The position numbers and the translations under genes are program-made. A stretch of 64,000 nt of DNA from a virus (lineage: Duplodnaviria > Caudoviricetes): positions 1 to 64,000 of IMG/VR virus record IMGVR_UViG_3300050514_000135. One strand, written 5' to 3'. This document shows, one piece after another, positions 4,543 through 32,600 of the stretch (position 1 is its first letter; each line of letters begins with the position of its first letter). The notes below the pieces were generated by a model. That model had not been told where the DNA came from. It saw only the letters and a program-made list of their open reading frames with translations, and ran no database searches.

Positions 4543-4817
4543 TTCGCCTGCAGCTCCAGGTACTTCTGCCAGGCTCCCTCGATGCCCATGACGCGCTCGT
4601 GCTTGCCCTTGTCGAGCGCGTACTTCAGGCAGGCGTCGGCGCACTCGCGCGCCTCCTCGACCTTCTCCGCGTCCTTGCCCTCTGCCTCCCTGAGCATCGC
4701 CCAGATCCCGATGACCAGCGCCGCGCTCGGGTCGCGGCCCATGAGCACGAAGTGCGGCTCGTCCGGTTCGAGCTTGCTGTAGCAGTCGAACTTCCCTGGT
4801 TGGTTCTTCGTGCCCAT
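4539..4817 (-). CDS. conserved phage hypothetical protein (GKFDCY...PDEPHFVLMGRD)
   Basis: ATG at 4817 after GAGGAGG, coupled to neighbouring genes. Confidence 0.7.
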   Translation of the reverse strand: MGTKNQPGKFDCYSKLEPDEPHFVLMGRDPSAALVIGIWAMLREAEGKDAEKVEEARECADACLKYALDKGKHERVMGIEGAWQKYLELQAK

Positions 4818-5011
4818 CAGTCCTCCTCGTCGTCCAGGTCGCCCGCGTCGTCGCCCTCGAGCACGCACATGCCGCGGTGCTCGCGCACGCGCCCGAGCAC
4901 GCCCGTCACCTCATCGCCGTCCTCGTTCTCGAGCTCCAGCACGACCTCGAGCTCGTCGTCGAGGTCCTCCAGGACCGCCTTGAGTCGGCCCACCGTCCAC
5001 GGCTCAGGCAT
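4817..5011 (-). CDS. small acidic hypothetical protein
   Basis: Coupled ORF with high-GC3 codon usage. Confidence 0.6.
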   Translation of the reverse strand: MPEPWTVGRLKAVLEDLDDELEVVLELENEDGDEVTGVLGRVREHRGMCVLEGDDAGDLDDEED

Positions 5012-5675
5012 TGGTCGACTCCGGTGCGATCATCGCCTCTCCGTTAGCTTGTTTGCAGTCGTGACAGCGGAGCGAGAACGCCCGCAGGTCGTCCATCGTG
5101 ATCGGTCGTTGCTCGCCCTCGTTGATCGTCACGACCATCACCTCTCGCTGGTGCTCGCAGTACTGCAAGAACTCTTCGGTCGAGACGTCGACGAGCGTGA
5201 CCCCTGGTGCTTCCCCGCTCTCGCCGTTCGCCGGCGCCGCCGCGGCCGGCGCCTTCTTGGCTCGCCCGCGCTTCTTCTTCGGCTGCCCCGGCAAGCGCGT
5301 GGCCGTCGCGTTGTCGGGTTTCGCCTCCGGCTTCGCGACGGTCGGGGCCGCGGCAGCGACCTTCTTCGCGCGCGCCTTCTTCGCCGGGGGCGGCTTGGGC
5401 TTCACCCAGAGCTGGTAGTGCGCCGGGTTCACGAGTCTCGTGACCAGCTTCTTCCGCTCTTTCTTCTTCCCGCTCTCGTCCTCGTGGTGCTCGACCACGG
5501 TCTCCTGCTCCGTGTCGTGCTCGACCCAGAGGTCCACCAGCAACCAGCCCGGACTGTCGTCGGGCGGGTCGATCGGCACGCCGTCCACGTAGCCCGCGTC
5601 GGGCGAACTCGTGGTGGTCGAGCAGATCACTCGGATGTCGAACTTGTTCCCGTCGATCTCTTTTCGCATTGGCAT
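5004..5675 (-). CDS. hypothetical protein with K/A/P-rich linker and C-terminal Cys
   Basis: Operon position and codon usage. Confidence 0.65.
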   Translation of the reverse strand: MPMRKEIDGNKFDIRVICSTTTSSPDAGYVDGVPIDPPDDSPGWLLVDLWVEHDTEQETVVEHHEDESGKKKERKKLVTRLVNPAHYQLWVKPKPPPAKKARAKKVAAAAPTVAKPEAKPDNATATRLPGQPKKKRGRAKKAPAAAAPANGESGEAPGVTLVDVSTEEFLQYCEHQREVMVVTINEGEQRPITMDDLRAFSLRCHDCKQANGEAMIAPESTNA

Positions 5676-5693
5676 TGCTCTTTCTCTTCGGTC

Positions 5694-6158
5694 TCAGCCG
5701 CCGTTGGGCACGTACGGGTAGAAGTCGCACGCGGTGAAGTCGCGGTTGCTCTGCGTCTTCACGCCGCGCGCGCGGACCACGACGTACTTCTTCGTGAAGT
5801 TGTTGTTGTCCTGGTAGACGATCGCCCAGTCGAGGAGCGGCTTCATCTGCGCCCGCAGCGCGTTCACCGTGGCCTCGTCCTCGCGGTGCACGCCGAGCAC
5901 GCCCGCCGCCCACTGGAAGATCGCGTTGTCGGCGACGTCCTTCTTCGTGAGGTCCTGCTTCCAGACGACGAGTTGCCCGACCGGGTTCTCCGGGTGGTTC
6001 GAGCTCATCACCGTCATCTCGCAGAAGAACTTCGCGCCGAAGCGCGTGTCGTTGACGTACGTCTTCTCGATCTGGCAGACGCCCTCGAAGCCGTCCGCGA
6101 GCGTCGGCTGCCGGGGCGGCCCGATCTCCGCGCGTTGAAAATTACTGAACTGGTACAT
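5694..6158 (-). CDS. putative single-stranded DNA-binding-type protein
   Basis: Beta-rich 154-aa protein between helicase and polymerase; function inferred from position only. Confidence 0.35.
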   Translation of the reverse strand: MYQFSNFQRAEIGPPRQPTLADGFEGVCQIEKTYVNDTRFGAKFFCEMTVMSSNHPENPVGQLVVWKQDLTKKDVADNAIFQWAAGVLGVHREDEATVNALRAQMKPLLDWAIVYQDNNNFTKKYVVVRARGVKTQSNRDFTACDFYPYVPNGG

Positions 6159-6161
6159 GCT

Positions 6162-7976
6162 TCACACTCCTCTGCTTGACTTGTTTGCTGCCCACCGCGG
6201 GCCGAAGCCGCGGAGACTCCTGTCGTCGACGTCGACCGTGGCCAGTAGCAGCTTCTGCGGCGCCCCGGTCGCGTGCTCGATGTAGCGCGCGTCGCGCATC
6301 GCCTGGTCGAGCGCCTCCAACTGCTCTCGGCACGAGACCAGGAACTCGAACGTGACCTCGTCCGCGAACTGGCCGGGTCGGTGCGTGCGACCGATCAGTT
6401 GCTGATTGCGCGCCCCGTTCGGCAGGAGCGACATGATCAGGTTCTTGTTCCAGCCCTGCAGGTTGCGTCCCTCGCTGTTCGCCGCCCGCGACGCCACCAG
6501 CGTGGTGCGCGTGTCGTGGTTGTCGATGAACCGCTTGTGAACGTCGAAGCCCTTCGCGCCGTAATAGGTGAGCCCGAACTCGTCGCGCAGGCGCTGCCCG
6601 ACGCACTTGTGCTCGGTCCAGATTATCCCGACGTTCTTGCGCGCCCACTCGGCGGCGAACTCGCAGGCGGTCGAGTCGATCCACACGGGCACCGTGTTCG
6701 GCGTGAACGTGTCGCGCACGGCCAGCCACTCTCGGCACTCCTTGGAGTCGGCGTGCGCGATGCGGACCTGCTTCTCGCTGTCCCACTTGCGCGAGTGCTT
6801 GAGCACGTCGCGCACGAACGCGTGCCAGACCTTGCGCGGCATCTCCCACTCGGGCGGCGGCCGCGGGGACCAGACGTAGAAGAAGCCCAGGGCGAGCTCG
6901 CGCGCGTGCCGCGCGAACGTCATCGGGTCCGGGATGGTCCAGCCGTCGGGCGTCTCCCAGTTCTCGCGCAGGTGGTTGAACGCAGCGTCCACGTTCGGCC
7001 CAGGCTCGTAACCGAGCGCGCGCACGACGATCGTCGCGTCGACGCCGGTCTCGTGCGTGGCGACCACGCCCGGCGTCTCCACGAGTCTCCGCCGGAACGT
7101 CTGCCGCGCCGCGGCCTTGCGGTCCCCTAACCAGAGCTTCCGGTCCTCGGCGTCCGCGCAGAGGATCTCGAGCGCGCCCGGGTCGACGCGCGCGAAGTCG
7201 CCCTTCTTCTCGTCGAGCGCGTCGGACCAGAGCTTCAGGTCGTTCCAGTGCGTCGGCACCGGCACGAGCTCCGCCGGCAGGCACCACGTCAGGATGTGCG
7301 CGAAGTCGAGGATCGACCGCTTCGTCGCGGTGCCCGACACGGCGCCGCAGTGCACCGGCTTCGGCGGCTGCTGGTAGTGGCCGACCACGACGACCTTGCG
7401 CTTCTTCTTGTGCTTGTCGCGGAAGAAGCGGTTGATGCGCCGCGCGACGGCCGCGTCCTTGTTGTTCTTCGCGCGGTGGCACTCGTCGAGGAACACCAAG
7501 TCCGGGTCCCACTCGTCCAGTGCGCCGGGCACGTCGTTCTCCGGGTCGCCGCCGGCCTTCAGTCGACCGAGCCACTCGTAGCTCATGATCCGGATGAAGA
7601 GCGGCAGGTACCAGTGCTGCTCGAGGACCTCCTTGTCGCGCTTCGTCTTCTCGACGAGCCCGGCCGGCACGATCAGCAGCGGCCGGTGCGACTTCATGAT
7701 CACCGGCGCGAGCAGCGAGATGAGCGTCTTGCCCGCGCCGACGGTGATGCTACCGAAGAGCCCGCCGACGGTGCCGAGCTCGTAGAGCGCCCACGCCTGC
7801 ACGGGCTTCAGGCGCATCGTCCCGCGCGGCTTCTTCAGCCGCGCCGTCAGCTCGTCGGCGAGCCACTCCATGTCCTCCGGCGCCATCACGCGACGCCGGA
7901 GGTTGGAGATCCGGAACAGCTCCGCGCTGGGCGGCACGAAGTCCGGAGGGGGTGCTCTGCCGATCAAGGCGCTCAT
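6162..7976 (-). CDS. SF2 (SNF2-like) DEAD/DEAH-box helicase
   Basis: TVGAGKT Walker A, LDECH, SGTAT, SEGRNLQ, QLIGRTHRPGQ; start MSALIG at 7976. Confidence 0.88.
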   Translation of the reverse strand: MSALIGRAPPPDFVPPSAELFRISNLRRRVMAPEDMEWLADELTARLKKPRGTMRLKPVQAWALYELGTVGGLFGSITVGAGKTLISLLAPVIMKSHRPLLIVPAGLVEKTKRDKEVLEQHWYLPLFIRIMSYEWLGRLKAGGDPENDVPGALDEWDPDLVFLDECHRAKNNKDAAVARRINRFFRDKHKKKRKVVVVGHYQQPPKPVHCGAVSGTATKRSILDFAHILTWCLPAELVPVPTHWNDLKLWSDALDEKKGDFARVDPGALEILCADAEDRKLWLGDRKAAARQTFRRRLVETPGVVATHETGVDATIVVRALGYEPGPNVDAAFNHLRENWETPDGWTIPDPMTFARHARELALGFFYVWSPRPPPEWEMPRKVWHAFVRDVLKHSRKWDSEKQVRIAHADSKECREWLAVRDTFTPNTVPVWIDSTACEFAAEWARKNVGIIWTEHKCVGQRLRDEFGLTYYGAKGFDVHKRFIDNHDTRTTLVASRAANSEGRNLQGWNKNLIMSLLPNGARNQQLIGRTHRPGQFADEVTFEFLVSCREQLEALDQAMRDARYIEHATGAPQKLLLATVDVDDRSLRGFGPRWAANKSSRGV

Positions 7977-7984
7977 CGTTCCGC

Positions 7985-9376
7985 TTACTGGCGGGCCCGG
8001 AGCTCCGCGACGAGTGCGTCGGCGATCTGAGCCGCCTGGCTCGTGTTGCCGTTGGTGAGCTGCACGGCGCTCGCGGCGAAGATGACCCAAGAGCCGTCCA
8101 GCGCGTGCTCCTTGCTCTTGGTCGGCCTGCCGACGGGCTTGGCGGCCTCCTGGGGCTGCTGGGCACCCGGGGGCGTGAACTGCTGCGCCGGGGGCGGTTG
8201 CGGGGCTGGAAAGGCCGCCTGGGGCATCGGCAGCTGCTGCTGCTGGGGTTGGAACGACGGTTGGGGAGCCTGCGGCTGAAACTGCGGCGGGCCCTGCTGC
8301 GTGAATTGCGGCTGCGGCGCCCCTTGCGGCGCGAACGTCGACGGCGCCGACGGCGGCATCTGCGGCGCCGAGAACTGCGGCATGGGCGCGCTGAACTGCT
8401 GCCCGCCCGGCACCTGGAACTGCGGCGGCCCCTGCGGCTGCAGCGGTTGCTGGGGTTGGAACTGCGGCTGGCCCTGCGGTTGGAACTGTGGTTGTCCCTG
8501 CGGCTGGAACTGCGGCGGGTTGATCGGCGCGCCGTTCGGCGGCGTCACTCCGCCCAGGAACTGCTGGGTGGCGGGGTTGTTCTGGAAGTTGCTCATGATG
8601 GTTTGGATCCTCTCTTTTGCTTTGATCGCGCAGTGCTCTTCGCCCTGGTACGGGCACCCCCCGTACTGGTCACACGCTGTGAGGTCTTGGACGACGTCGA
8701 GCGCGCGCTTCGTGCTCTGGATGTGCCGCTTGATGGCGCGCCCCGTCTCGATGTTCTTCTGCATGCGCGGCGTGATCATCGCGTCGGTCACCGTCGCGTA
8801 GACGGGCTTCACCTTGATCGCGCCCTCGCTCTTGACGTAGTTCCACTGGAGGTCAATCTCCGTCTTGCCGGTCAAGATGATCGTCCACGCCGCGTAGAGC
8901 GCGGCCTGCGCGTCGTTCTGTATCTCCTCCGCGCGCGGCGCCCACCGGTCCGGGTCCTTCGACGTCTTGTGGTCGTACGTGCGCGGGCGCACCACGCCGT
9001 CCCAGCTGAGCTGCATCGGGACGAACAAGTCGATCTTGACGTTGAAGAGCACGTCCACGACCACGATCAGCTCGTCGCGCTCGACGTTCGTCCGCTCGCA
9101 CGCCTGCGGCGGCGGCAGGTACGGGATCATCGCCTGCGCGAGCAGGACCTCCTTGCTGCTGCCCGTCGGCACGACGCCGTACTTCAGCCACTTCTCGAGC
9201 CGCCCGTGCGTGTTGATGCCGAGCTCCGCGAACTTCTTCGGCGGCGCGTACTGCCGCTCCAGCCACCGCCAGGCCCACTTGCGGTTGCAGAGTTCGTAGT
9301 TCGAGATCTGTGTGGCGGAGATCCAAGGTTCTTTCTCGGGGTCGATGGGTGGGTAGATGGGGAGGAGAGCGCTCAT
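7985..9376 (-). CDS. PD-(D/E)XK nuclease (Cas4/RecB-like, Fe-S Cys) with Q/P-rich C-terminal tail
   Basis: ISATQI...C.RKW, KIDL, DHKT, Q...Y, CDQYGGCPY..C. Confidence 0.8.
   Translation of the reverse strand: MSALLPIYPPIDPEKEPWISATQISNYELCNRKWAWRWLERQYAPPKKFAELGINTHGRLEKWLKYGVVPTGSSKEVLLAQAMIPYLPPPQACERTNVERDELIVVVDVLFNVKIDLFVPMQLSWDGVVRPRTYDHKTSKDPDRWAPRAEEIQNDAQAALYAAWTIILTGKTEIDLQWNYVKSEGAIKVKPVYATVTDAMITPRMQKNIETGRAIKRHIQSTKRALDVVQDLTACDQYGGCPYQGEEHCAIKAKERIQTIMSNFQNNPATQQFLGGVTPPNGAPINPPQFQPQGQPQFQPQGQPQFQPQQPLQPQGPPQFQVPGGQQFSAPMPQFSAPQMPPSAPSTFAPQGAPQPQFTQQGPPQFQPQAPQPSFQPQQQQLPMPQAAFPAPQPPPAQQFTPPGAQQPQEAAKPVGRPTKSKEHALDGSWVIFAASAVQLTNGNTSQAAQIADALVAELRARQ
8440..8516 (-). repeat. tandem 24-nt coding repeat (QFQPQGQP) inside the nuclease tail
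   Basis: PQFQPQGQPQFQPQGQPQFQPQ in the translation. Confidence 0.75.
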
Positions 9377-9588
9377 CCGCGCTTGTTCCCGTTCTTTTTT
9401 TCTTCGAGGACTTCAGTCAGCAGCGCCTGAACTGCGCTGGTCCGGCTCACGACCATCCCGGTCTTAGCTCGCAAGTACTTCGCGTGAGCATCTATCTGTT
9501 TCACGAGTTTCGGTGACAATCTCACCATCGGATCCAGCTTTTTTGCCATCGAACGAACTGTATACACTTTGTCGAGCGAATGCGTCAA
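9373..9588 (-). CDS. ribbon-helix-helix DNA-binding protein
   Basis: MVRLSPKLVKQID...SRTSAVQALL RHH pattern; true start may be the ATG at 9549. Confidence 0.6.
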   Translation of the reverse strand: MTHSLDKVYTVRSMAKKLDPMVRLSPKLVKQIDAHAKYLRAKTGMVVSRTSAVQALLTEVLEEKKNGNKRG

Positions 9589-12344
9589 GCCGTTTTCGTG
9601 AGACCAATGTTGGTTTCGATCGAATCAGTGGAGAGCTGCTTCGCGATCTCCTCTTCCGTGATCAGGTCGCTGTTCTTTGCCCAGGCGTAGATGTTGTCGG
9701 GAACGATCACGCGGTAGTTCATCGGGATTCTTTTCCCGTTCAGGAGCTGGATGCGCTGCTTCGGGTACGCGAGTTCGCCGATGGTCTGCGCGAGCTTCCC
9801 CGAGGGCGGGCACTTCTCGTTGCCGATGTACTTGTCCCAGAATTCGAGGAGCCCAGAGATGTTGACGAGCAGTTGGCCCTTATAAACGCGCACGTACATC
9901 TTGGTGTTCGGGTCGCCCTCGAACTTGCGGCGGTCCGAGAGGTAGCTGCAGAGCCACCGCAGCACCGCACTGCGCGCCCCGCTCGAGGTCGCGAGCCAGC
10001 GCGTGTTCTCGACGTCGGGGCGGTTGATGTAGAAGCGGCCCTGCGACTCGTGCCGGTGGTTGTAGTACAGCCACATCACGAACTCTGCGATCTTGTCGCC
10101 CTCGACCCAGCCGCGCTCGAACGTCGTCGGGCGGAGCCACGCCAGGTAGTCCCCCGCCGCGTCGCGCACCGCGATGTGGAAGTAGCGCTCCATGATGCCC
10201 TCGATCTCGTTATTCGAGAGGTCCTCGGGCGTGCGCAGGATCGACGGGTCGTGCGCGGCTACGATCGTCGGCGTGACGCCGATGAGCTTGCCGTTCGGCA
10301 GGAACTTCCGCTTGTACATGCGCTCGGTCGCCTGGATGTGGTGGCGGAGCTGCGGGTTCATCGTGTAGCCGCGGAAGTCCTTCGGTAGTTGCTCGTCAGC
10401 GAAGCAGAGCGGGCAGCTCGCGACGATGTCGTTGAACGGGCCGAACGCGGCGTCGAGCGAGGTCGGCCCGCGCGTCGTCCAGAGCCGCGCGCAGCCGAGC
10501 GCGAGCAGGCTCTTGCCGAGGCTCTTCTTGCCGGTCAGGAAGAGCGCGACGCGCACGATGTCGAGCCGCGGCAGGATCGCGAGCCACGTCTTCAGGTCGT
10601 ACCAGTACTCCGGCCCCGCGAGGTGGTAGAGCCACTCGTCGATGTCGGCGTGGTAGACCGGCGCGATCGGGCGGAGCGGGCACGGCGCCTCGATGATCGT
10701 CCGCACGCTCGGGTCGTACGTCGTGGTCTGCGCGCGCATGTCGAGGATGAGCTCGTCGGCGACGGTGCCGTACTCGGCGACGAGCTGGCGCAGGCTCTTG
10801 AACTCGGCGCCGTCCTTCGTGACCTTGTAGAGCTCGACGCCCGCGCTCGATGCCGGCGCCAGCTCGCGCAGCGCGGCGTTGTGCGCCTCCGCCTCCGTGT
10901 ACGGGCCGCGGTGCTTGCCGTAGTGGTAGAAGTAGAACGCGCGGTCCTTCTGCAGGATCCACTGGTGCCCCGTGCTGATGACCGGAGCGAACCGCTGCAG
11001 CTCCTCGACCGTGTACGGGTGCGAGCGGCCGTTGTTAAACGACTCGCGGATGCGGCTCGCCTTGTCGTGCTCGACCTCCTGCTCGCGCCGCTGTTCTTTC
11101 TTCCGCCGCTCGTCGCGCTCCTGCCGGACCTCGTCCTGCTTCAGCTTGATGCGCGCCTCGACCTGCTCGACGGTCACGTCCTCACCATCGGCGACCATGA
11201 CGCGCAGGCTCTCGTCGAAGAGCGCCGCGATGGACTTAGCGTTGTAATCGACGTACCGCGTGCCGAGCTCCGCCGCGAGCTTCAGCGCGAGCGGCTCGGG
11301 GAAAGGGCGCCGCTCGCAGACCTTCGCGAGCGCGTCGCCCAGCTCGCGCTTGTTGTCGAACTTGCTCTTCTTCAGTTCCTTGGAGTAGCGCGTGAGCTGC
11401 TCGAGTGAGATGTCCGGGGCGCGCTCGACGAGGGCGCGGACCTTCTCGACGACGTCGTAGCCGACGATGCCCGCGAGCGTGGTCCAGCCCGTGATCTTCT
11501 CGTTCGCGTCGAGCTGGTCGCGCGTGTGCTGCACGGCGCTCTCGCGCTTGTCGCGCTCCTCTTCGCTGCCGTCGTGCTGGCGCGCGACCGCGCACAGGAA
11601 CTCGACCGCGCGCTCGTCGGTTACGCCGCTTGAGAGCAGTCCGCCCGCTAGCGCGAGGTGCGCCTCGTGCCGGCGCTGGCTCGGCCACACGGCGGCGAGC
11701 ATGGCGACGGCCTCGCTGTCCTTGGTCTTCCGCTCCTCGCCGTCGGTCGCCCGCGTGTCGCGCACGCCCTCGGGCAGGGGCAGGGCGAACACGGACTCGG
11801 TCGCGAGCGCGTTGCCGGGGAGCGCGTAGTAGAAGTTCACCGCCTCGGTGCCGGCGGGGGCGAAGGGGCCGAAGTAGAGCCGGCTCTCGTTCTTGCACTT
11901 GAGGTCGCCGACGCCCCCGAAGAGGCCGTGATTCGCCTTAGCCCAGAACTCGCGCCAGCGCGCCGCGTCCACCGGCTGGTCGAGCGGGATGACGACCCGG
12001 AACTTGTACAGGCCGGTCTTGGCGAGCGACTCCGCGTGCGACCACGTGGAGTACACGACGGCCGCCAGCCCGAGCTGGCGCACGAAGGCGACGAGCGCGA
12101 GGTACGTCTGCTCGCTCACCTCGTCGACGTCGAGGACGAACATCCAGAGCCGGACGACGAAGGCGTCGTCGCGAACGACGTTCGGGGCGCTGAGGTCGAA
12201 CTCGGCCGGGCTGAAGCAGGGGACGAATTTCTTGACCTGGTAGCGATAATCGTGGGGTCCGAGCTCGGCCGCGAAGTATTCCCAAGTGATATCGCCCTGT
12301 TTCGGGTCGTTATCCTTCGCGTGGTCGAAGTTGGAGACCTTCAC
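9585..12344 (-). CDS. primase-helicase (N-terminal AEP-type primase, C-terminal DUF5906/D5-like P-loop)
   Basis: VLDVD, YSTWSH, KFRVVIPL primase motifs; TGKKSLGKS Walker A and FADE Walker B. Confidence 0.82.
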   Translation of the reverse strand: MKVSNFDHAKDNDPKQGDITWEYFAAELGPHDYRYQVKKFVPCFSPAEFDLSAPNVVRDDAFVVRLWMFVLDVDEVSEQTYLALVAFVRQLGLAAVVYSTWSHAESLAKTGLYKFRVVIPLDQPVDAARWREFWAKANHGLFGGVGDLKCKNESRLYFGPFAPAGTEAVNFYYALPGNALATESVFALPLPEGVRDTRATDGEERKTKDSEAVAMLAAVWPSQRRHEAHLALAGGLLSSGVTDERAVEFLCAVARQHDGSEEERDKRESAVQHTRDQLDANEKITGWTTLAGIVGYDVVEKVRALVERAPDISLEQLTRYSKELKKSKFDNKRELGDALAKVCERRPFPEPLALKLAAELGTRYVDYNAKSIAALFDESLRVMVADGEDVTVEQVEARIKLKQDEVRQERDERRKKEQRREQEVEHDKASRIRESFNNGRSHPYTVEELQRFAPVISTGHQWILQKDRAFYFYHYGKHRGPYTEAEAHNAALRELAPASSAGVELYKVTKDGAEFKSLRQLVAEYGTVADELILDMRAQTTTYDPSVRTIIEAPCPLRPIAPVYHADIDEWLYHLAGPEYWYDLKTWLAILPRLDIVRVALFLTGKKSLGKSLLALGCARLWTTRGPTSLDAAFGPFNDIVASCPLCFADEQLPKDFRGYTMNPQLRHHIQATERMYKRKFLPNGKLIGVTPTIVAAHDPSILRTPEDLSNNEIEGIMERYFHIAVRDAAGDYLAWLRPTTFERGWVEGDKIAEFVMWLYYNHRHESQGRFYINRPDVENTRWLATSSGARSAVLRWLCSYLSDRRKFEGDPNTKMYVRVYKGQLLVNISGLLEFWDKYIGNEKCPPSGKLAQTIGELAYPKQRIQLLNGKRIPMNYRVIVPDNIYAWAKNSDLITEEEIAKQLSTDSIETNIGLTKTA

Positions 12345-15372: not shown

Positions 15373-15572
15373 TTCGAACTCCTCGGCACCAGCCCGTGCT
15401 CGTGCGTGAGCTGCGCGATGATGAGCCCGGCTCGCATCCGGACGCTGTCACCGAGGCGATGGTCGCGCAGTAGCTGCTCCACGACGCCGACCAGGCGCTC
15501 GAACTCGGCCGAGCTGTTGAACCGCCCGTCCTCACCGACGGTCCAGTCCTTCTCTAGTGCTTCGTCGTTCAT
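15369..15572 (-). CDS. hypothetical protein
   Basis: Coupled ORF. Confidence 0.55.
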   Translation of the reverse strand: MNDEALEKDWTVGEDGRFNSSAEFERLVGVVEQLLRDHRLGDSVRMRAGLIIAQLTHEHGLVPRSSK

Positions 15573-15748
15573 CGATACGGATCCTTCTTCGTCGCCTCGC
15601 GCAGCGCGTGCACGGCTCGGTCGGCCATCTCGACCGAGTCTTCCAACTGAGCTTCTTCCCTCTCGTATTGGTACGTCATGAACGCGGCTCCGTAGGCCGC
15701 GCTCCAGACCGCGCGCTCGCGCTCGTCCATGTCGTTCCAGGGGATCAT
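15569..15748 (-). CDS. hypothetical protein
   Basis: ATG at 15748 overlaps the upstream stop. Confidence 0.55.
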   Translation of the reverse strand: MIPWNDMDERERAVWSAAYGAAFMTYQYEREEAQLEDSVEMADRAVHALREATKKDPYR

Positions 15749-16302
15749 CGGATCCCCAGCAGGGACTCGAGGCGAGTCAGTCCGGCGTCGTCGTTCAGCA
15801 GCTCTTCCGGTTTCTGCCCGTCGAGTTGCTCGTTCGGCTCGTGCAGCCACTGCATGGTGTGGATCTCGAACACCTTCGCGAGCACGTTGTGGTTGCGGCG
15901 CCACAGAGTCAGGGCCTCGACCGCAGGCTTGAACATTCGCAGCGAGAGGACGAGGTCGCTCAGCGAGCAGCGGATGTGCTCATTGATGACGAGGCTCTTT
16001 TTGATCGGGTCCAGACTGTCTCGCGTCAGCCCGACGATCTTCGCCAGGCTCTGGACCTGGTTTAGAGCTCCACGCGCGAACCAGATGTCTCGATCACCGT
16101 CGTTCAGGTACCGCTTGAGCTCGCGGACCTCGTCGTCGGAGGCGAATCGCAGGTCACCAGGACTGATGAAGAATCTTCCTTGAAAGTCGTTGAGCTCGTC
16201 TCGAGCCAGGCGCATCTGCACGTAGCGGTTCGCCTCGACCTCGAAGTGCTCGTAGACGTCCTCGACGTCCTGCTCGGTCTGGATTCTTTCGGGCAATGCC
16301 AT
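15745..16302 (-). CDS. protein with C-terminal Xre/MbcA/ParS antitoxin-type (DUF2384-like) domain
   Basis: C-terminal QWLHEPNEQLDGQKPEELL matches the WL..PN..L.G..P..LL pattern; start MALPERIQ at 16302. Confidence 0.55.
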   Translation of the reverse strand: MALPERIQTEQDVEDVYEHFEVEANRYVQMRLARDELNDFQGRFFISPGDLRFASDDEVRELKRYLNDGDRDIWFARGALNQVQSLAKIVGLTRDSLDPIKKSLVINEHIRCSLSDLVLSLRMFKPAVEALTLWRRNHNVLAKVFEIHTMQWLHEPNEQLDGQKPEELLNDDAGLTRLESLLGIR

Positions 16303-16304
16303 TG

Positions 16305-16694
16305 TCAGTTCCCCTCGCTGTGGCGCTTCGCGGCCCGGTCCGTGGCCACGCGCTCGACGTGCTCGAACACCGAGTTGAGGATCCGGTTGAGCGGGTTCAT
16401 CTCGCGGAGCTGGAAGTTGTGGGCCGCCACGGCGTGGTCGGTGAAGTGACCGATCACGTCCCCGATCGTTTCGCCGTTCTCGGCGAGCATCGCCACGGTG
16501 ACGCGCGACGCCAGGTCGAGGACCCTGCACTCGAGCGCGTTCAGGAGCCTGCGCTTGAACTCCGCCTGCTCGTCCTCGGGCAGCGCCTCGATGTGCGCGT
16601 ACGACACGACGATCAGTTGCTCGATCGTGTCGGCTAGGTGGATGGCGCAGGCGGCCACCCACTCCTTGATCATGTCCTCGTCGGTCTCTTCCAT
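16305..16694 (-). CDS. acidic helical hypothetical protein immediately downstream of the array
   Basis: ATG at 16694 with an AAGGAG RBS at the array edge. Confidence 0.65.
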   Translation of the reverse strand: MEETDEDMIKEWVAACAIHLADTIEQLIVVSYAHIEALPEDEQAEFKRRLLNALECRVLDLASRVTVAMLAENGETIGDVIGHFTDHAVAAHNFQLREMNPLNRILNSVFEHVERVATDRAAKRHSEGN

Positions 16695-16707
16695 CGGTCG
16701 TCTCCTT

Positions 16708-17100
16708 GGTTGGTCGCGTTGGCTCGGCTCGGCCGGTACCGGCTTGTCGCTGAGAATAGTTGTGGCAAGGTACGTCGCGAAGTTTGGGTGCGGATCGTCG
16801 CGATGGGGCGTTCGGGATCTTGGCATGGCGGGGTCTGTCGCGATGGGGCGGCATGGTAAGGTCAGTCGCGGCGCGCAGCAGTGGCCAGTGTCGTCGCTGC
16901 GGTCACGGGTTGGAGCTGAAAGGCACGTCGCACGAGTTGGCTGGGATTGTCGTGTCGACGAGGACGTGGTTCGGAATGTCTGGGATTGTCGCGTCGGCTA
17001 GGGCGTGGCTTGGGCGGGCATGTGGGGGCATGTCGCGTGGTTGGGTGCGGAACGACATGGCACGTCGCACGGATTGGCTGGGATTGTCCTGGTTCGTCGC
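16708..17100 (-). repeat. pentamer-periodic non-coding array 1 (putative guide-RNA array)
   Basis: 13 GTCGY anchors (16713, 16746, 16774, 16797, 16837, 16865, 16893, 16927, 16949, 16988, 17032, 17064, 17096) separated by runs of GG-NNN pentamers; starts at the RAMP gene stop codon. Confidence 0.85.
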
Positions 17101-17813
17101 TACGCCTTCTCCTTCTTCGCCGCGGGCTCGGTCGCGATGCCCTTGCCCGTGCTGATCTTCTCGAACTCGACCACGTCGAACTTGCCCTCGCCCTGCGAGC
17201 GGGACGCGCCGCAACCGTTCTCCTGCGCGTGCGTGAGGATCTCGACGAGCTCCGCCTCGCCGACGTGCCGCTTCTCCAGCGCGGCCGTGCCGAGGACCCA
17301 GATCTCGAACGTGAGCGTCGGCTTCGTCACGTAGTCCATGCGCCGGAGCGCGGTGCGCGGGCCCTGCGCGGTCATGACGTGGATCGCGCTCTCGTCCGTC
17401 CCGTCGATCGTCTTCTTGCCGAGGTAGATCCGGTCGTGGCCGTTGACCGCCTTCACCTCCATGCCCTCGGCGAGGATCTGCTTGCTGCCGAGCTTCTTCT
17501 TGGTGACGCCGAGGAGGGACGCCGACTGCTTGAGCATGGCCTTGACGTTGCGCGCGGGGATGAACAGGCCCTGCTTGTCCTCGGGGAAGTCTATCCACGA
17601 CTTCTCGGCGACCTCGTTCACGACGAGCTCGGCGTTCTCCTGCGTGAGCTTCTCGCTCTTCTCGTCGGCGTAGCCGGTCGTCGACTCGACCCACGTCTTG
17701 ATGAGCTCCTTGTTCTTGGGCATGCCGCCGCACACGCGGTCGCGTACGGCGATCGTGACGCGGTAGATGTCGTACAGGCGTCGCGGGTCGAATCTCTCGT
17801 CTAGTTTGCTCAT
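17100..17813 (-). CDS. stand-alone Cas7/RAMP-superfamily RNA-binding protein (237 aa)
   Basis: N-terminal strand YRVTIAVRDRVCGG, FIPARNVKAMLK (IPGSSLKG-like), C-terminal Gly-rich loop GCGASRSQGEGKFDV; ATG at 17813 with purine-rich RBS. Confidence 0.8.
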   Translation of the reverse strand: MSKLDERFDPRRLYDIYRVTIAVRDRVCGGMPKNKELIKTWVESTTGYADEKSEKLTQENAELVVNEVAEKSWIDFPEDKQGLFIPARNVKAMLKQSASLLGVTKKKLGSKQILAEGMEVKAVNGHDRIYLGKKTIDGTDESAIHVMTAQGPRTALRRMDYVTKPTLTFEIWVLGTAALEKRHVGEAELVEILTHAQENGCGASRSQGEGKFDVVEFEKISTGKGIATEPAAKKEKA

Positions 17814-17834
17814 GCTCTGCTCTTTTCTTTTTGG

Positions 17835-18272
17835 GGTTAGAAGCGTTTTGGATGGGTTAGTCGCGCAGACTTGCGGTGTGAGCTGGGCCAGTACGTCGCA
17901 GAGGAGGGGCTCGATGGGGCATGGGTTGTCGCGTTGGCCAAGTCCGGTACGGTACGTCGCGTTGGCGAAGTCAGTCAGGGCTTGTCGCGTCGGAAAGATC
18001 CGGCGTGAGGTGGGCCGGAGTGTCGCGCGGGTCTGGTACTGGCAGGTAGGTCGCGAAGCGATGGCTGGGTTCGGAATGTCGCGCCGGTGCGCGGATCGTC
18101 GCAAAGGATTGGCGTGATCCGGATTGTCGCCCAGGCTCGTTTCGGGTGCGGTCCGTCGCTTAGGACGGTTGGGATTCAGATAGGTACGTCGTGTTGATCC
18201 GGAACGACCAGGTACGTCGCCGGGGAAGGGTCGGTGTCAGGATTGTCGTTGAGCACTGGATAGGTTCGTCGC
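17835..18272 (-). repeat. pentamer-periodic non-coding array 2 (putative guide-RNA array)
   Basis: 15 GTCGY anchors from 17860 to 18268, spacings 35,33,28,28,38,28,28,20,28,29,33,28,29,23; by hand parse 53/58 pentamers start with G and 38/58 with GG. Confidence 0.87.
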
Positions 18273-18548
18273 TCAGAACACGCGCGCGAACGGGTCGTCG
18301 GACTTCGGGGGCGGGTACTCGCGCTCGACGAGCGGCACGCACCTCGCGCCGCACTCGCCCGCGTCCTCGTCCTCGACGGGGGCCGGCTCGGGCGCGGCCG
18401 CGTCCGGCTGGTCGCAGAGGATGATCATGCGCCGCGGCGGCTCGTACGGCGCGACCTCGTCGATCGAGTAGCACTTGGGGCACGCCTCAGGCGGCTGGCT
18501 CGAGGCGCAGGCGGAGAGGGCCACGGCTGCTAGCAGGCGGTAGTTCAT
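18273..18548 (-). CDS. small lipoprotein
   Basis: LLAAVALSAC lipobox. Confidence 0.6.
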   Translation of the reverse strand: MNYRLLAAVALSACASSQPPEACPKCYSIDEVAPYEPPRRMIILCDQPDAAAPEPAPVEDEDAGECGARCVPLVEREYPPPKSDDPFARVF

Positions 18549-18919
18549 GGATCCCCCTTCGGCGCGTTAGCCGGCTCGGTTGCGTAGCCCATGTACTCGC
18601 GCACGGCGCGGGAGAGGTCCCGTTCGGCTGCCACAAGTAGTCCATGGAGGGGGTCGTAGTCGCGACTCGCGTGAATCTCGCTGAGCTCCGCTCGCGCCGT
18701 TTCAGCGCGGCATGCGAAGTCGAGGATCACGCGCTCCTGTCGGTAGCGCTTCTCGGCCGCGTCGAGCTTGGCGAAGACTTCGTCCGGCAAGAGCTCCACG
18801 CGCGCGTCGCCACCCTCGAAGTAGACGTCCGACGTCTCCCTGCCCGGGACGGCGACGACCGCGACGACCTTGGCGAACCGCACCTCGGCGTCGCCCAGCT
18901 TCACGAATTGGTCTCTCAT
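18545..18919 (-). CDS. hypothetical protein
   Basis: ATG at 18919 overlaps the upstream stop. Confidence 0.6.
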   Translation of the reverse strand: MRDQFVKLGDAEVRFAKVVAVVAVPGRETSDVYFEGGDARVELLPDEVFAKLDAAEKRYRQERVILDFACRAETARAELSEIHASRDYDPLHGLLVAAERDLSRAVREYMGYATEPANAPKGDP

Positions 18920-19155
18920 GTTGTGCTCACTTTCTCCACCGGCACGAACATCTCTGCTCGGACCGCGCCGCCCGTGGCGCGCTCGATCTTGAACGCGAGC
19001 TCCACCGACACGCGCGCGGCGTCCTTCTTCAGGAGCTTGCCGAACTCGCTCGGGTCCTGGCCGATGTCGAGCGCGAAGCGGTGCTTGCTGATCTTCTTGT
19101 CGTCGAGCCAGCACCTGAGCGCGGCGATGCCGGGGACGACTTCCTCGCTGGCCAT
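18916..19155 (-). CDS. Cro/YdaS-like helix-turn-helix regulator
   Basis: ISKHRFALDIGQDPSEFGKLL...AFKIERATGGAV. Confidence 0.75.
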   Translation of the reverse strand: MASEEVVPGIAALRCWLDDKKISKHRFALDIGQDPSEFGKLLKKDAARVSVELAFKIERATGGAVRAEMFVPVEKVSTT

Positions 19156-20045
19156 CAGTAGCACCCGCACTCGAGCTTGGTCGTCGCCGCGTCGGGCGGC
19201 GTGTACGCGCTCTTGCTCCCGCGCGTCTCGCCCAGCCCGTCGACGCACAGGTACGTCACCGTGAGGTCCTTGGGGCAGCCGGGCTTGGGGTCGAAGCCGG
19301 GGTCGACCGCGAACGCGAAGTCGTACGTGCAGTCGGTCTCGCCGTCGCAGGCACCGGCCACGCCGTTGAGCGGTGTCGGCGTCCCGCAGTTGTTCGCGTA
19401 GACGGAGCCCACGACCTGGATCACGGTGCAGGCCGGGCCAGCGTCCACCCCAGCCCCTCCGCCGCCCGCAGGAGCTCCTGCAGCGCCTGCACCAGCCACT
19501 CCGCCGGTGCCAGCACCAGCCGCACCAGCAGCGCCTCCAGAGCCTCCCACAGATGCTTCGCCATACGTTCCTCCTGTCCCAAACAGTTCGTCGTTCTTAC
19601 TCGAGCTGGAGCAGCCCGCGAGGGCGAGCGCGGCCAGCACCTGCAGGATCACGCGCACGCGCTGGCCGAGGCGCAGCGTCGCCTTGGCTCTCTCGTCGTG
19701 CGTGCCGACGGAATGCTCGAAGTTGGTGATGCTCTTGACTCGTCCGTACATCTTGACGCCGTCGCTCTGGCCCAGGCTCGAGACCTCGACCTCGAAGGTC
19801 GTCAGCTCTTTCCACTCGGGCTCGGGCTCGTCGGCTGGTGTGCGGTAGGCGTTCTTGTCTTTGTTCATGGGCAGTCTCCTGAATTCTGCGGCTCGGTCGC
19901 GGATGCGTAGGTGCCTTTCGGCGACAGAATCCTCGTGGTCGGCGCAGGACCAAAATTTCTCGTTCTCGGGTTCGCTGTCGCACCGCCGGCACGTGCAGAC
20001 CATGCACGGTCGGTTCAGGCAACCGCTGTGGTCGCAGTAGCTCAT
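19155..20045 (-). CDS. composite ORF ending in a lipoprotein segment with G/A linker and SUEL/galactose-lectin-like domain
   Basis: LAALALAGCSSS lipobox, GTGG/AGA linker, CDGETDC...DPKPGCPKDLTVTYLC. Confidence 0.6.
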   Translation of the reverse strand: MSYCDHSGCLNRPCMVCTCRRCDSEPENEKFWSCADHEDSVAERHLRIRDRAAEFRRLPMNKDKNAYRTPADEPEPEWKELTTFEVEVSSLGQSDGVKMYGRVKSITNFEHSVGTHDERAKATLRLGQRVRVILQVLAALALAGCSSSSKNDELFGTGGTYGEASVGGSGGAAGAAGAGTGGVAGAGAAGAPAGGGGAGVDAGPACTVIQVVGSVYANNCGTPTPLNGVAGACDGETDCTYDFAFAVDPGFDPKPGCPKDLTVTYLCVDGLGETRGSKSAYTPPDAATTKLECGCY

Positions 20046-24101: not shown

Positions 24102-24454
24102 GGTTGCTCCTCGGTCTCTTTCTTCTTGGGCTTGCAGGCAGCGGCGGCGATCTCGAACAGTTGCGTCTTGATTCGCAGGTCCGCTTCAGACGCTTCCAGT
24201 TGCCGACGTTTTTCGGCTACGTGTTCGTGGGCCGCCTTCATCACTTTGCGAGCCTTCTCGCGCTCGGCGCGGAGGAAGCAAGCGTCGCAGATGTCGTTGC
24301 CGCTCGACCAGTGGTTCGTGCGGCGCGTCGCCTGGCGCTTGTCGCAGGACGCGCACATGCAACAGTTGATCGCCTGGACTTCCTTGCCGTGCGTCTTCTT
24401 GCAGTTCGCGCAGCGCCAGCGCTCGGCCGTGTACTCTTCCTTCGTCGGGGTCAT
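24089..24454 (-). CDS. zinc-finger coiled-coil protein
   Basis: Several CxxC motifs; ATG at 24454. Confidence 0.6.
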   Translation of the reverse strand: MTPTKEEYTAERWRCANCKKTHGKEVQAINCCMCASCDKRQATRRTNHWSSGNDICDACFLRAEREKARKVMKAAHEHVAEKRRQLEASEADLRIKTQLFEIAAAACKPKKKETEEQPCPK

Positions 24455-25917
24455 GACCGCCTCCACTTGTTGAACCCATTCACGAGGTACAGCTCGCGCT
24501 TGCTCCTTGTAATCGCGACGTACTTGAGGTTGATCTCCTCGACGCCGTCGCGCTTCATGTACGTGTCCTCGAGCATCCACACGCGGTCGGCCTCGAGTCC
24601 CTTCGCCTTGTGCGTGCTCGTCAGGATGATCTTCGGCTCGCCCTTGCGGTCCGAGAAGAGCTTGTCGATCTTGCCGAGCAGGTCGCGGATCGTTCTCACG
24701 CCCTCGCTCAGCGCGAGCAGGCACTCGGCCTGGTCGTCGACGTTGTCCGTCGGGCGCGGAGGTTTCTTGCTCGTGAGCCGGCGGCACTCGTGCGCGTGCC
24801 ACTTGTCCACGTACGCGCGGAACTCCTCGACGGTCTTGCAGTCGCTCTTCTCTACGAAGCTCGCGAGCTTCGTGCCGATGTCCCGGCCCTGGATGTGGGC
24901 GGGCCGGCCCGCGGAGAGCAGGCGCCAGCACAGGCTCACGAGCGGCGCGTTCACGCGGCTGATCACGAAGTCGCCCGAGCGGAGCTCGTCCCACATCTCC
25001 TCGGGCTCGCGGTCCTCGACGACGCCGTCCTGTGCACCCGGCGCGGCTTCGATCTGGGGGACGAGCGTCTTCGCGAGCTCGACCACGAGCCGCGGGCAGC
25101 GGTAGCTGATCGAAAGCGGCAGGACCTTCGCGTTGAACCTCTCGATGATGTTGTCGATCGCCCGCGCGTCCGCGCCGCGGAAGGCGTAGATGCTCTGCCG
25201 GCGATCACCGATGGCCGTGATGCGCCCGCCCGGCTTGATCGCGCGCTCCATGACCGCGAGCTGGCAGGGGTTCAGGTCCTGAGTCTCGTCGACCACGACG
25301 CGGTCGAAGCGCGGCAGCGGCAGGTCGAGCGCGACCGGCAACCAGATCATGTCGTCGAAGTCGACCTCGCCCTTCACCTCCTTGGCGAGCTGGAGAAGTT
25401 TCGCCGCCTGCTCGCAGAAGTGCTGGCGCTCGAGTTGTTTCGTGTCCTCCTCCTTGGTCTTGTACGGCACCGCGATGCCGTAGGTGTCGAGCAGGAGGTC
25501 GACGTCCGTCTCGGTCCACGCGAGCGTGCCCTTGGCCAGGCTCACGGCCTTGCAGAGCGCGCCCGCCCACTCGCCCGAGACCTCGAGCCCGCGCGATTCG
25601 AAGTAGGCGTCGAGCACGTGGTACATGCGGTCGCGGTCGACCTTCACGCGCCCGAGCGCGCGCGTCGTCGCGCCGAACGCGAAGCTGTGGAACGTGCTGG
25701 TGCGGGTGCCGGGGGGCACGCGGCCGAGCAGGGCGTCGGCGATCTCCTTGTTGAACGCGCCCATCCACACGGACAGCCCGCTCGGGATGTGGCGCAGCAT
25801 CTCGGTGCCCGTGGTCGTCTTCCCGCTCCCGGGTACGGCCTCGACCACGGTGTGGCCCTCGCCGCTCCGGGCGTCGTCGAAGACGGCCTGCTGGTAGGCG
25901 CTCCAGACTCGGGTCAC
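24451..25917 (-). CDS. UvrD/Rep-type SF1 helicase
   Basis: AVPGSGKT, VVVDETQD, GDRRQSIYAFRGA, SYRC, THKAKGLEAD, YVAITRSK. Confidence 0.92.
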   Translation of the reverse strand: MTRVWSAYQQAVFDDARSGEGHTVVEAVPGSGKTTTGTEMLRHIPSGLSVWMGAFNKEIADALLGRVPPGTRTSTFHSFAFGATTRALGRVKVDRDRMYHVLDAYFESRGLEVSGEWAGALCKAVSLAKGTLAWTETDVDLLLDTYGIAVPYKTKEEDTKQLERQHFCEQAAKLLQLAKEVKGEVDFDDMIWLPVALDLPLPRFDRVVVDETQDLNPCQLAVMERAIKPGGRITAIGDRRQSIYAFRGADARAIDNIIERFNAKVLPLSISYRCPRLVVELAKTLVPQIEAAPGAQDGVVEDREPEEMWDELRSGDFVISRVNAPLVSLCWRLLSAGRPAHIQGRDIGTKLASFVEKSDCKTVEEFRAYVDKWHAHECRRLTSKKPPRPTDNVDDQAECLLALSEGVRTIRDLLGKIDKLFSDRKGEPKIILTSTHKAKGLEADRVWMLEDTYMKRDGVEEINLKYVAITRSKRELYLVNGFNKWRRS

Positions 25918-26372
25918 TTGTTCTCTCCGTAGCTCTTGGCGAACGCGACGAGGTCCCGGTCGAAGGACAGCAGCGTGTCGTTGAAGACTTCGCCGTAATC
26001 GTGATGGGCAGCCTCGGCGTTGTTTGCAGCCCAGGCGCGCCGCGCTGCTTGGAGGTGCAGGTTGTCGGTAAGTGGCAGAGGTTCGAGCCGACCGAGCACG
26101 ACCTCGTGCACGGCCGTGCCGAGCGCTGTGCGGTTGAACTCGCCGACCTCGTCGACCACTTTCAGGAACTTCTGCGTGCACGCCTGCCAGTGCGTGAGGG
26201 CGTTCCGGAGCTCGACCATCTCCTCGGGGTTGACGGCGAAGGCGTCGCAGAGTCGCTTGTTGTCGGCGCAGTCGCTCACCTCTTGGGCGCAGCGCGCGAC
26301 GACCATGACGGCTTCCGCCAGGTCACGATCGGCCTTCTTCAGTCTCGCTTCCAGTTCTTGTCTCTTGTTCAT
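25914..26372 (-). CDS. hypothetical coiled-coil protein
   Basis: Coupled ORF with an AGGAG RBS. Confidence 0.6.
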   Translation of the reverse strand: MNKRQELEARLKKADRDLAEAVMVVARCAQEVSDCADNKRLCDAFAVNPEEMVELRNALTHWQACTQKFLKVVDEVGEFNRTALGTAVHEVVLGRLEPLPLTDNLHLQAARRAWAANNAEAAHHDYGEVFNDTLLSFDRDLVAFAKSYGENK

Positions 26373-31793: not shown

Positions 31794-32435
31794 ATGGGAG
31801 CATGCACCGAGTCAGTTTCTCACCGGTTCTACCTGGCTTCGGAGCCGAACAGGCTGGAAGCCAAGCGGATCAAGCGCGCGGCCGAGCGCGAACACGAGCG
31901 CGCCGGCTGGCGCGACCCATGGATCGCATGCGTGCGCGTGCGGCGCGGCGTTGTCGACTGGGCCGGCTACTTCCAATCGAAGCAGCCATGGTTCTACGGT
32001 TGGACGCCGTTACCGGACTTCGGCGAGCTAGACGGCTACTTGCTCTTGACGATCGAGCAATCGAGCGCCGGCGCGCCACCCGACCGCGCTGAGCAGGCCG
32101 AGCAACGCGCGGAGAACGTGCGCGACTACCTGACCGTGCGCCAGCGCGTCGTCGCGCAGCGAGCTCGCATCGTCTCGAGTCAAGAGGAGACCGAGGCGAT
32201 GCTCGACTTGGTCGGCTGGGCAAACCGACGGCTCGCGTGGCTGTTCCGAAACACGCACGCGATCGTGTACGGCGGCCGACCAGCGTGCGCGGTCCTGCTC
32301 GACCCGGACGGAAAAACACTCTTGACCGTCGAGGGTTCTCCGACGTTCGCGATCTTCGAGCTCGTGCGCCGGATCGAGACTCGGATCGGACGGAGACACA
32401 AGAAAACGGCTCTCGCGATTGATTGTGTCGATTGA
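31794..32435 (+). CDS. hypothetical protein
   Basis: First long + strand ORF after the divergent region. Confidence 0.55.
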   Translation: MGACTESVSHRFYLASEPNRLEAKRIKRAAEREHERAGWRDPWIACVRVRRGVVDWAGYFQSKQPWFYGWTPLPDFGELDGYLLLTIEQSSAGAPPDRAEQAEQRAENVRDYLTVRQRVVAQRARIVSSQEETEAMLDLVGWANRRLAWLFRNTHAIVYGGRPACAVLLDPDGKTLLTVEGSPTFAIFELVRRIETRIGRRHKKTALAIDCVD

Positions 32436-32600
32436 TCGTTGCGATTGTTTTCTCTCTCGAAAAGCTCGATTGAGCTTTTCGACTGTTTTCTCTCTGAAAA
32501 AGCTCGATTGATTCACTCGAATGTTCTCCGGGTTAGAGATCTGAGATTGATTACCTCGTTTGTTTATTCGTAAGTCCTCGATATCTCTACGGCGATCAAT
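32417..32600. repeat. AT-rich element with GATTGA repeats, a 28-bp direct repeat and an 11-bp hairpin
   Basis: TGTTTTCTCTCT..AAAAGCTCGATTGA twice; stem TCGAAAAGCTC-GATT-GAGCTTTTCGA at 32457-32482. Confidence 0.6.

Follow-up and report, generated by a model that had tools for sequence, protein, structure and literature searches.

VIPR (Viral Interference Programmable Repeat) systems were described only in 2026. As set out in the accessible text of the preprints, they pair a stand-alone, mostly phage-encoded RAMP protein (Vipr) with vrRNAs, which are tandem GGY/NN pentanucleotide repeats situated in the long intergenic regions flanking vipr (10.64898/2026.04.26.720920), and the variable NN positions are reported to read double-stranded DNA with a one-nucleotide skip. 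Those VIPRs that have been characterised act against competing mobile elements, and VIPR has been proposed as the ancestor of the CRISPR RAMP effectors (2026 VIPR preprints). Cryo-EM shows each repeat bound by one Vipr protomer, and residues D177, W178 and R138 of the canonical protein are reported to read G1 and G2 (10.64898/2026.04.26.720927). Within the SUSP1 family the vrRNAs are about 100 nt long and carry 9–16 GGY/NN repeats on the vipr strand followed by a structured tail of about 40 nt, and a vap gene accompanies them (10.64898/2026.04.26.720920); the SUSP1 locus, which we inspected directly, has GGYNN repeats on the vipr strand in a single register, each run being capped by a hairpin-containing tail. 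The accessible part of the same preprint also mentions seven types, NNNGG, YNNNG and NNNNG motifs, and both 'staggered' and ribozyme-separated arrays, with the units of staggered arrays abutting and non-type II architectures allowed for (10.64898/2026.04.26.720920). Non-canonical VIPR-like arrays of about 10 repeats, with the motifs GAC/NN, CAC/NN, WGT/NN and TGH/NN, have since been recovered by their 5-nt entropy period, according to the accessible text of a further preprint (10.64898/2026.10.21.760802).

The DNA analysed here, which we refer to as the window, is a stretch of 64,000 nucleotides from a 97-kb viral contig (IMG/VR record IMGVR_UViG_3300050514_000135). Genes in the part of the window considered here run on the minus strand throughout, and two intervals, 16696–17100 and 17814–18272, lack a coding signal as judged from third-position GC. 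Each of these holds an array, and between them lies a minus-strand gene (17100–17813; 237 aa) for a stand-alone Cas7/Csm3-like RAMP, a candidate Vipr-like protein. Array 2 (17814–18272, minus strand), upstream of the RAMP gene, consists of approximately 14–15 modules which on the minus strand take the form (G/T)CGAC + (NNNCC)k + 3 nt. Its first anchor, GCGAC(GAACC), is situated immediately 3' of the TGA (18273–18275) of an upstream 91-aa ORF, and the RAMP start codon lies about 35 nt beyond the end of the array. Array 1 (16696–17100, minus strand), downstream of the gene, has approximately 12–15 modules of the same grammar in a more relaxed form; the first of its anchors overlaps with the stop codon of the RAMP gene (TAGCGACGAACC), and the array continues until the following gene (16694) begins with its Shine-Dalgarno sequence and ATG. 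Both arrays open with GCGACGAACC, and their composition is strongly strand-asymmetric, with C making up 40–43% of the sense strand.

We propose, with a probability of about 0.6, that this locus encodes a VIPR-type viral RNA-guided system, in which the two arrays supply the RNA and the RAMP gene between them the protein.

The sequence-only reading of this DNA had described the arrays as modules quantised at 8+5n nt by a GTCGC/GCGAC anchor, and a recount with GTCG[CT] returned the same anchor positions and spacings in both arrays: 35,33,28,28,38,28,28,20,28,29,33,28,29,23 in array 2 and 33,28,23,40,28,(25+3),34,22,39,44,32,32 in array 1. The claimed 10 of 14 array 2 spacings indeed fit the rule, that is, equal 3 mod 5 (binomial P = 4.6e-5, or 2.3e-4 when any of the five residue classes is allowed), and array 1 is more relaxed, as had been said, with 5 of 12 spacings fitting, which is weak when taken alone (P = 0.07). 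Across seven independent related loci 45 of 81 spacings are of 8+5n length (P = 2e-12). The anchor is real and about sixfold over-represented in both arrays: there are 13 copies of GCGAC in array 2 and 11 in array 1, where dinucleotide shuffles give about 2 (maximum 7 in 1000). Its definition needs some revision, the conserved core being (G/T)CGAC, with the three bases that precede it weakly constrained (A 40%, A 49%, not-G 95%). On the plus strand the pentamer before the anchor starts with GG in every module but one, again as described.

A 5-nt sub-period within the modules, also part of the earlier description, is evident as well. CC pairs at lags of 5, 10, 15 and 20 are more frequent in array 1 than in any of 1000 shuffles and in array 2 than in all but 11, and these being dinucleotide shuffles as for the anchor count. 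When the minus strand is cut in fives after each anchor, there appears a run of NNNCC, then three bases, then the next anchor, with CC at offset 3 from the anchor in 54–65% of pentamers and at the other offsets in 2–24%. The 8+5n quantisation arises because the body between anchors is composed of NNNCC pentamers plus 3 nt, in phase with the anchor. The pentamer logo on the strand of the RAMP gene is N N R(63%) C(85%) C(98%) or, taken from the complementary strand, GG Y(63%) N N. Among 349 modules k = 4 is the commonest size (136), followed by k = 5 (87), k = 6 (54), k = 3 (32), k = 7 (20), k = 2 (18) and k = 8 (2). The only repeated element in the arrays is the anchor of 5–8 nt, and a single module offers only about 8–12 variable bases, few for a guide acting by itself.

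Structural and regulatory signals were sought around the arrays. Rfam returned no family on either strand of 15500–19500, array 2 folds no better than shuffles on either strand (z = 0.21 and -0.33), and a scan for consensus promoters and terminators around the arrays gave nothing useful. A custom scan for terminators beside 31 arrays found none in the sense and one in the antisense direction, and does not settle the strand. A second cluster of GTCGC in the window, at 50800–51100, was considered and rejected as an array; it is ordinary coding sequence.

The product of 17100–17813 is predicted to fold as a RAMP of the Cas7/Csm3 type. The ORF has the RAMP motifs of helix 1 (FIPARNVKAMLKQ) and of the C-terminal glycine-rich loop (ENGCGASRSQGEGKF), the latter reading GLGA(D/S)RSQGxGKF across the family, and H145, H183, R205 and S206 are among its invariant residues. 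An AlphaFold model built on 30 homologues has a pLDDT of 83, and its best Foldseek matches are type VII Cas7, Cmr4 and Csm3 (E ~4e-8). VIA-align, which is independent of Foldseek, gives Z 12.0 to Csm3 9g9a_D (rmsd 4.3, 165 residues aligned), followed by Cmr-beta 6s6b_I (Z 11.8) and type IV Csf2 7jhy_e (Z 10.9). PADLOC reports a weak match to Csm4 over the glycine-rich loop (E 2e-5), and in a word-indexed search 3 of 179 close relatives carry the JGI name 'Csm4 RAMP'. Pfam and PHROG contain no family matching the ORF. No cas gene or CRISPR array was detected near the locus by Pfam, PHROG, PADLOC and a repeat scan, and the 97-kb contig contains no second RAMP. What we find, then, is a small stand-alone RAMP (RRM core, glycine-rich loop and thumb) outside a CRISPR-cas context.

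To see the locus in its wider setting we compared 12 IMG/VR loci, 40 metagenome loci, one relative that is 82% identical (L055) and the cultured Microcystis phage Mae-JY09. In a full profile search the RAMP profile is matched by 1444 clusters at 50% identity, and the family is nearly absent from cellular genomes, with one match among 185,579 species genomes; its viral or proviral location is borne out by the relatives, which are IMG/VR contigs and a cultured cyanophage. CC-periodic arrays adjoin the RAMP gene in about 35 loci, upstream, downstream or on both sides, and in all of these CC lies on the sense strand of the RAMP gene. The anchor differs by clade, being GCGAC, (A)TTCGAC or CGAC, and the 8+5k rule is kept throughout. 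A region periodic in GG in one of the compared loci (L031) proved not to be an array and is a coding region rich in glycine. Crude ORF clustering of 13 loci found no conserved neighbour gene other than the RAMP, so that gene and arrays appear to move as one module; among the same 13 loci no vap accessory gene is conserved, though such clustering could miss a vap that has diverged or lies further away. In about 35 viral contexts that are otherwise unrelated, the arrays accompany the gene and keep their orientation relative to it.

Two of these loci deserve separate description. In L011, an IMG/VR contig of 52% GC, positions L011:1385-3900 hold, all in a single direction, a wHTH-like gene of 167 aa, a canonical Vipr and five canonical GGC/NN vrRNAs. 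Directly after these comes a RAMP of the window's family, and a GCGAC + NNNCC array begins at its stop codon. This locus therefore holds both RAMPs, each with its own kind of array, and the two RAMP families are distinct. The canonical Vipr of L011 served as a positive control for profile comparison, aligning with the SUSP1 family at an hhalign probability of 97.7%. Mae-JY09 (PP395641.1) encodes a RAMP of the window's family at 30% identity, and at L014:3711-4130 (approximately 38460–38880, at the right end of the genome) a CGAC-anchored 8+5n array runs from the RAMP stop codon and is followed by a strong hairpin. As a cultured phage with a RAMP-array system, Mae-JY09 makes the proposal experimentally tractable and directly testable. 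In another locus, L003, the RAMP stop codon is separated from the first anchor, on the sense strand, by a hairpin and then a U-tract (L003:3650-3724), and these may terminate transcription leakily, setting how much mRNA is made relative to array RNA.

The arrays turn over rapidly. Between the window and L055 the RAMP gene has 85.5% nucleotide identity and the arrays share no alignable sequence. L001 and L002 have flanks that are 99.9% identical, and L002 lacks a block of seven whole modules (L001:2635-2871), in place of which it has a single module of 27 nt. Whole modules are thus gained or lost at anchor boundaries between nearly identical viruses, and the variable bases change fast while anchor and CC persist, as would be expected of units that bear specificity.

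How closely the window's family resembles described VIPRs depends on the feature considered. Like the type II VIPR of SUSP1 it has a virus-encoded, small, stand-alone RAMP with no cas genes, and long flanking intergenic regions with tandem pentamers in which 2–3 bases are fixed and the rest hypervariable, upstream of the gene, downstream of it or both. At the level of the protein the similarity is seen by profile-profile comparison only: hhalign aligns the family with the SUSP1 Vipr family (SUSP1 / X1U2U4) weakly, at E 4.7e-4 and a probability of 32% over 138 columns, although the aligned region spans the RAMP motifs of helix 1 and the glycine-rich loop. The arrays differ from those of SUSP1 in several ways. 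Their modules contain 2–8 pentamers, mostly 4, and there are about 12–24 modules per array; the (G/T)CGAC anchor shifts the register by 3 nt between modules and takes the place of a structured tail; neither excess structure nor a conserved accessory gene was seen; and GG is antisense to the RAMP gene, the co-transcribed strand reading CC. The type II vrRNA architecture, with 9–16 repeats and a conserved structured 3' tail, is thus not that of the window's family. The non-canonical arrays noted above likewise have a 5-nt period, fixed motifs other than GGY and a position beside Vipr-like folds, but the accessible text of that preprint mentions no 8+5n architecture punctuated by CGAC and no motif of CC (10.64898/2026.10.21.760802).

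There are also parallels with class 1 CRISPR systems. The window's RAMP has, by its model, a Cas7-type fold (Z ~12) such as forms the class 1 backbones of Csm3, Cmr4 and Cas7; the arrays contain many units head to tail; and each unit has a short fixed element and a body whose steps in length would match the footprint of one subunit, as class 1 crRNAs have an 8-nt 5' handle and a spacer. The step, however, is 5 nt and not 6, the 'spacers' are themselves periodic, with CC every 5 nt, and there is no repeat of 23–50 nt, no Cas6 hairpin, and no cas1/cas2, cas5, cas10 or cas11. The combination that marks class 1 CRISPR-Cas, repeats of about 23–50 nt together with cas1/2, cas5, cas10 or cas8, and cas6, is accordingly missing from the locus. 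The commonest 8-mers at the start of units are AAUGCGAC and AACGCGAC, and AUUGCGAC itself occurs 5 times. The Thermus thermophilus repeat ending in ...GGGGATTGCGAC implies a AUUGCGAC handle (PMC12102369), which AAUGCGAC and AACGCGAC resemble, but this is a resemblance only, as the last five bases alone are strongly conserved here. In a literature search AUUGCGAC written as RNA led to no CRISPR paper, and in its DNA form it led to the Thermus repeat.

Taken together, the arrays and the RAMP belong to, or sit next to, the VIPR kind, with tandem pentanucleotide repeats of fixed and hypervariable positions flanking the RAMP gene. Their architecture is distinct, as possibly is the fixed motif, from anything found in the accessible text of the VIPR preprints; it may be that one of the seven types of the first preprint covers this family already, in which case it is simply a new member. 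The pentamer code is here packaged differently, in short, length-quantised units with a fixed anchor between them and dozens of units per array.

A plausible model is as follows. The arrays would be transcribed with the surrounding minus-strand operon, and RAMP protomers would coat the array RNA, one per pentamer, with CC held (GG instead, should the RNA be the opposite strand) and the variable bases left exposed. By breaking the pentamer register by 3 nt, the anchor would mark the boundaries of units carrying 2–8 protomers, most often 4, and at such a boundary the RNA could be cleaved or the filament interrupted. If the units are cut apart, each RNA would be an 8-nt handle + 5k nt, a parallel to class 1 crRNAs. 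Through the exposed bases the system would recognise a specific nucleic-acid target, probably one carried by competing mobile elements, as with the characterised VIPRs. The sequence-only reading had taken the anchor for a processing site or 5' handle that yields roughly 26 short guides, each loading a discrete number of subunits, and this interpretation is partly supported: the lengths of 8+5n fit units that load whole numbers of subunits, because the RAMPs of published VIPRs bind one protomer per pentamer, which would also explain the 5-nt steps in length. With only 8–12 variable bases in a single module, specificity must be low unless several units act together. Several features tell against the proposal: the sequence link to canonical Vipr is weak; GG is antisense to the gene whereas characterised vrRNAs have GGY/NN on the vipr strand, which implies either a different code or antisense transcription of the arrays; the modules are far shorter than 9–16 repeats and lack a structured tail; no vap gene is conserved in the loci compared; one module can specify little; and in L003 the hairpin and U-tract intervene between gene and array.

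The sense, C-rich strand is in our view the likely functional RNA. The arrays occupy gaps between co-directional genes, beginning at or on stop codons, and the junctions TGAGCGAC and TAGCGAC occur in the window, L011, Mae-JY09 and L055. As they run from these stop codons to the next ribosome-binding site, there is no room for separate array promoters. In L011, moreover, the CC array is co-oriented with the five canonical GGC/NN vrRNAs and the canonical Vipr gene. If the sense strand is the RNA, CC is the fixed motif and must be recognised by a code other than the GGY/NN rule with its one-nucleotide skip. More tentatively, and as something possible rather than probable, we suggest that this RAMP family reads CC and not GGY, with 3 free bases per pentamer, on a C-rich RNA made of short units that are headed by a ...GCGAC resembling a crRNA handle. 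Were this so, there would be a second pentamer code, with an architecture between the tandem-repeat guides of VIPR and the repeat-spacer arrays of CRISPR, and a direct bearing on the origin of CRISPR arrays and of the 8-nt handle.

The alternative that a VIPR-type system uses as its functional RNA the plus strand of the window, antisense to the RAMP gene, seems to us unlikely. Read on that strand the pentamer is G(98%) G(85%) Y(63%) N N, like published vrRNAs, and GGY is what published Vipr proteins recognise; the resulting canonical-like NNNGG/GGYNN pentamers ending in GTCGC could correspond to the 'staggered' or the NNNGG architecture of the VIPR preprint, whose accessible text lists NNNGG variants as well as staggered abutting units. 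An antisense RNA would, however, find no room for a promoter, with the arrays abutting minus-strand stop codons and ribosome-binding sites, and its transcription would need to begin within a coding region and oppose the direction of the operon. The shared orientation of the canonical vrRNAs and the CC array in L011 also argues against it, as does the fact that the G1- and G2-reading residues D177, W178 and R138 are not conserved at the aligned positions in the window's family, although that alignment is weak. The promoter and terminator scans favour neither strand.

It is also conceivable, if improbable, that the array RNA is a RAMP-binding scaffold, a decoy or an autoregulatory leader or trailer and provides no guides, for instance by titrating the RAMP or a competitor's Vipr and vrRNAs, or by setting RAMP expression in cis. 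The very fast change of the variable positions with the grammar kept is something a pure scaffold would not need, and the 12–24 modules per array also speak against it; yet the arrays do lie in the RAMP gene's own untranslated regions, touching its stop codon, the variable bases per module are few, local and IMG/VR searches found no targets, and VIPR decoys have been reported for satellites, as far as the accessible text of that preprint goes (10.64898/2026.10.15.759431). A reading of the arrays as double-stranded DNA sites, iterons or centromere-like repeats for a DNA-binding protein with a role in a replication origin or partition, strikes us as very remote. Some plasmid partition loci likewise have an array on either side of a single gene, and in the window the clusters of short oriented repeats are situated in a block of replication genes (primase-helicase, helicases, DNA polymerase). 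But the associated protein has the predicted fold of an RNA-binding RAMP and not of a DNA-binding protein, the strand asymmetry is strong, with 40–43% C on the sense strand, and the 5-bp unit, in which only 2 bases are fixed, and the differing lengths of the modules do not resemble iterons; nor is there an AT-rich unwinding region, and the position of the arrays relative to the gene varies while they move with it into unrelated contexts.

Target sequences were sought in approximately 340 kb of related viral DNA together with the 97-kb contig, and in IMG/VR; these searches were underpowered and gave negative results. On the local DNA 270 unique modules were compared under ten rules of pairing, with NNN or NN read in each pentamer and skips from 0 to 3, and no rule exceeded order-shuffled controls; the best gave 7 matches against 3.3 +/- 2.1 in controls, of which 5 of 60 did at least as well. 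In IMG/VR, 21-mers taken from modules of 7 pentamers and read by the 'NNN, no skip' rule had 0 matches in two scans, and the canonical NN/1-skip rule specifies too few bases per module for an exact scan of this kind.

The 97-kb contig is a temperate virus-like element by its PHROG matches, which include an integrase, a DNA polymerase, a primase-helicase and helicases. A replication block on the minus strand (window 2431–12344 and 24451–26181) comprises DNA polymerase (phrog_17), helicases, primase-helicase and a Dda-like helicase, and the RAMP locus is surrounded by such early or replication genes and not by structural genes. Two genes downstream of the arrays a 185-aa ORF (window 15745–16302, minus strand) carries the C-terminal toxin-binding domain of Xre/MbcA/ParS antitoxins (PF09722, E 2e-6); it is not kept beside the RAMP in other loci. 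The integrase is encoded on the plus strand at 33824–35401. Just upstream of the block that contains it, where gene orientation switches from minus to plus, there is a relatively AT-rich tandem repeat of 38 nt in 2.2 copies (32428–32525), which may be a regulatory or origin region.
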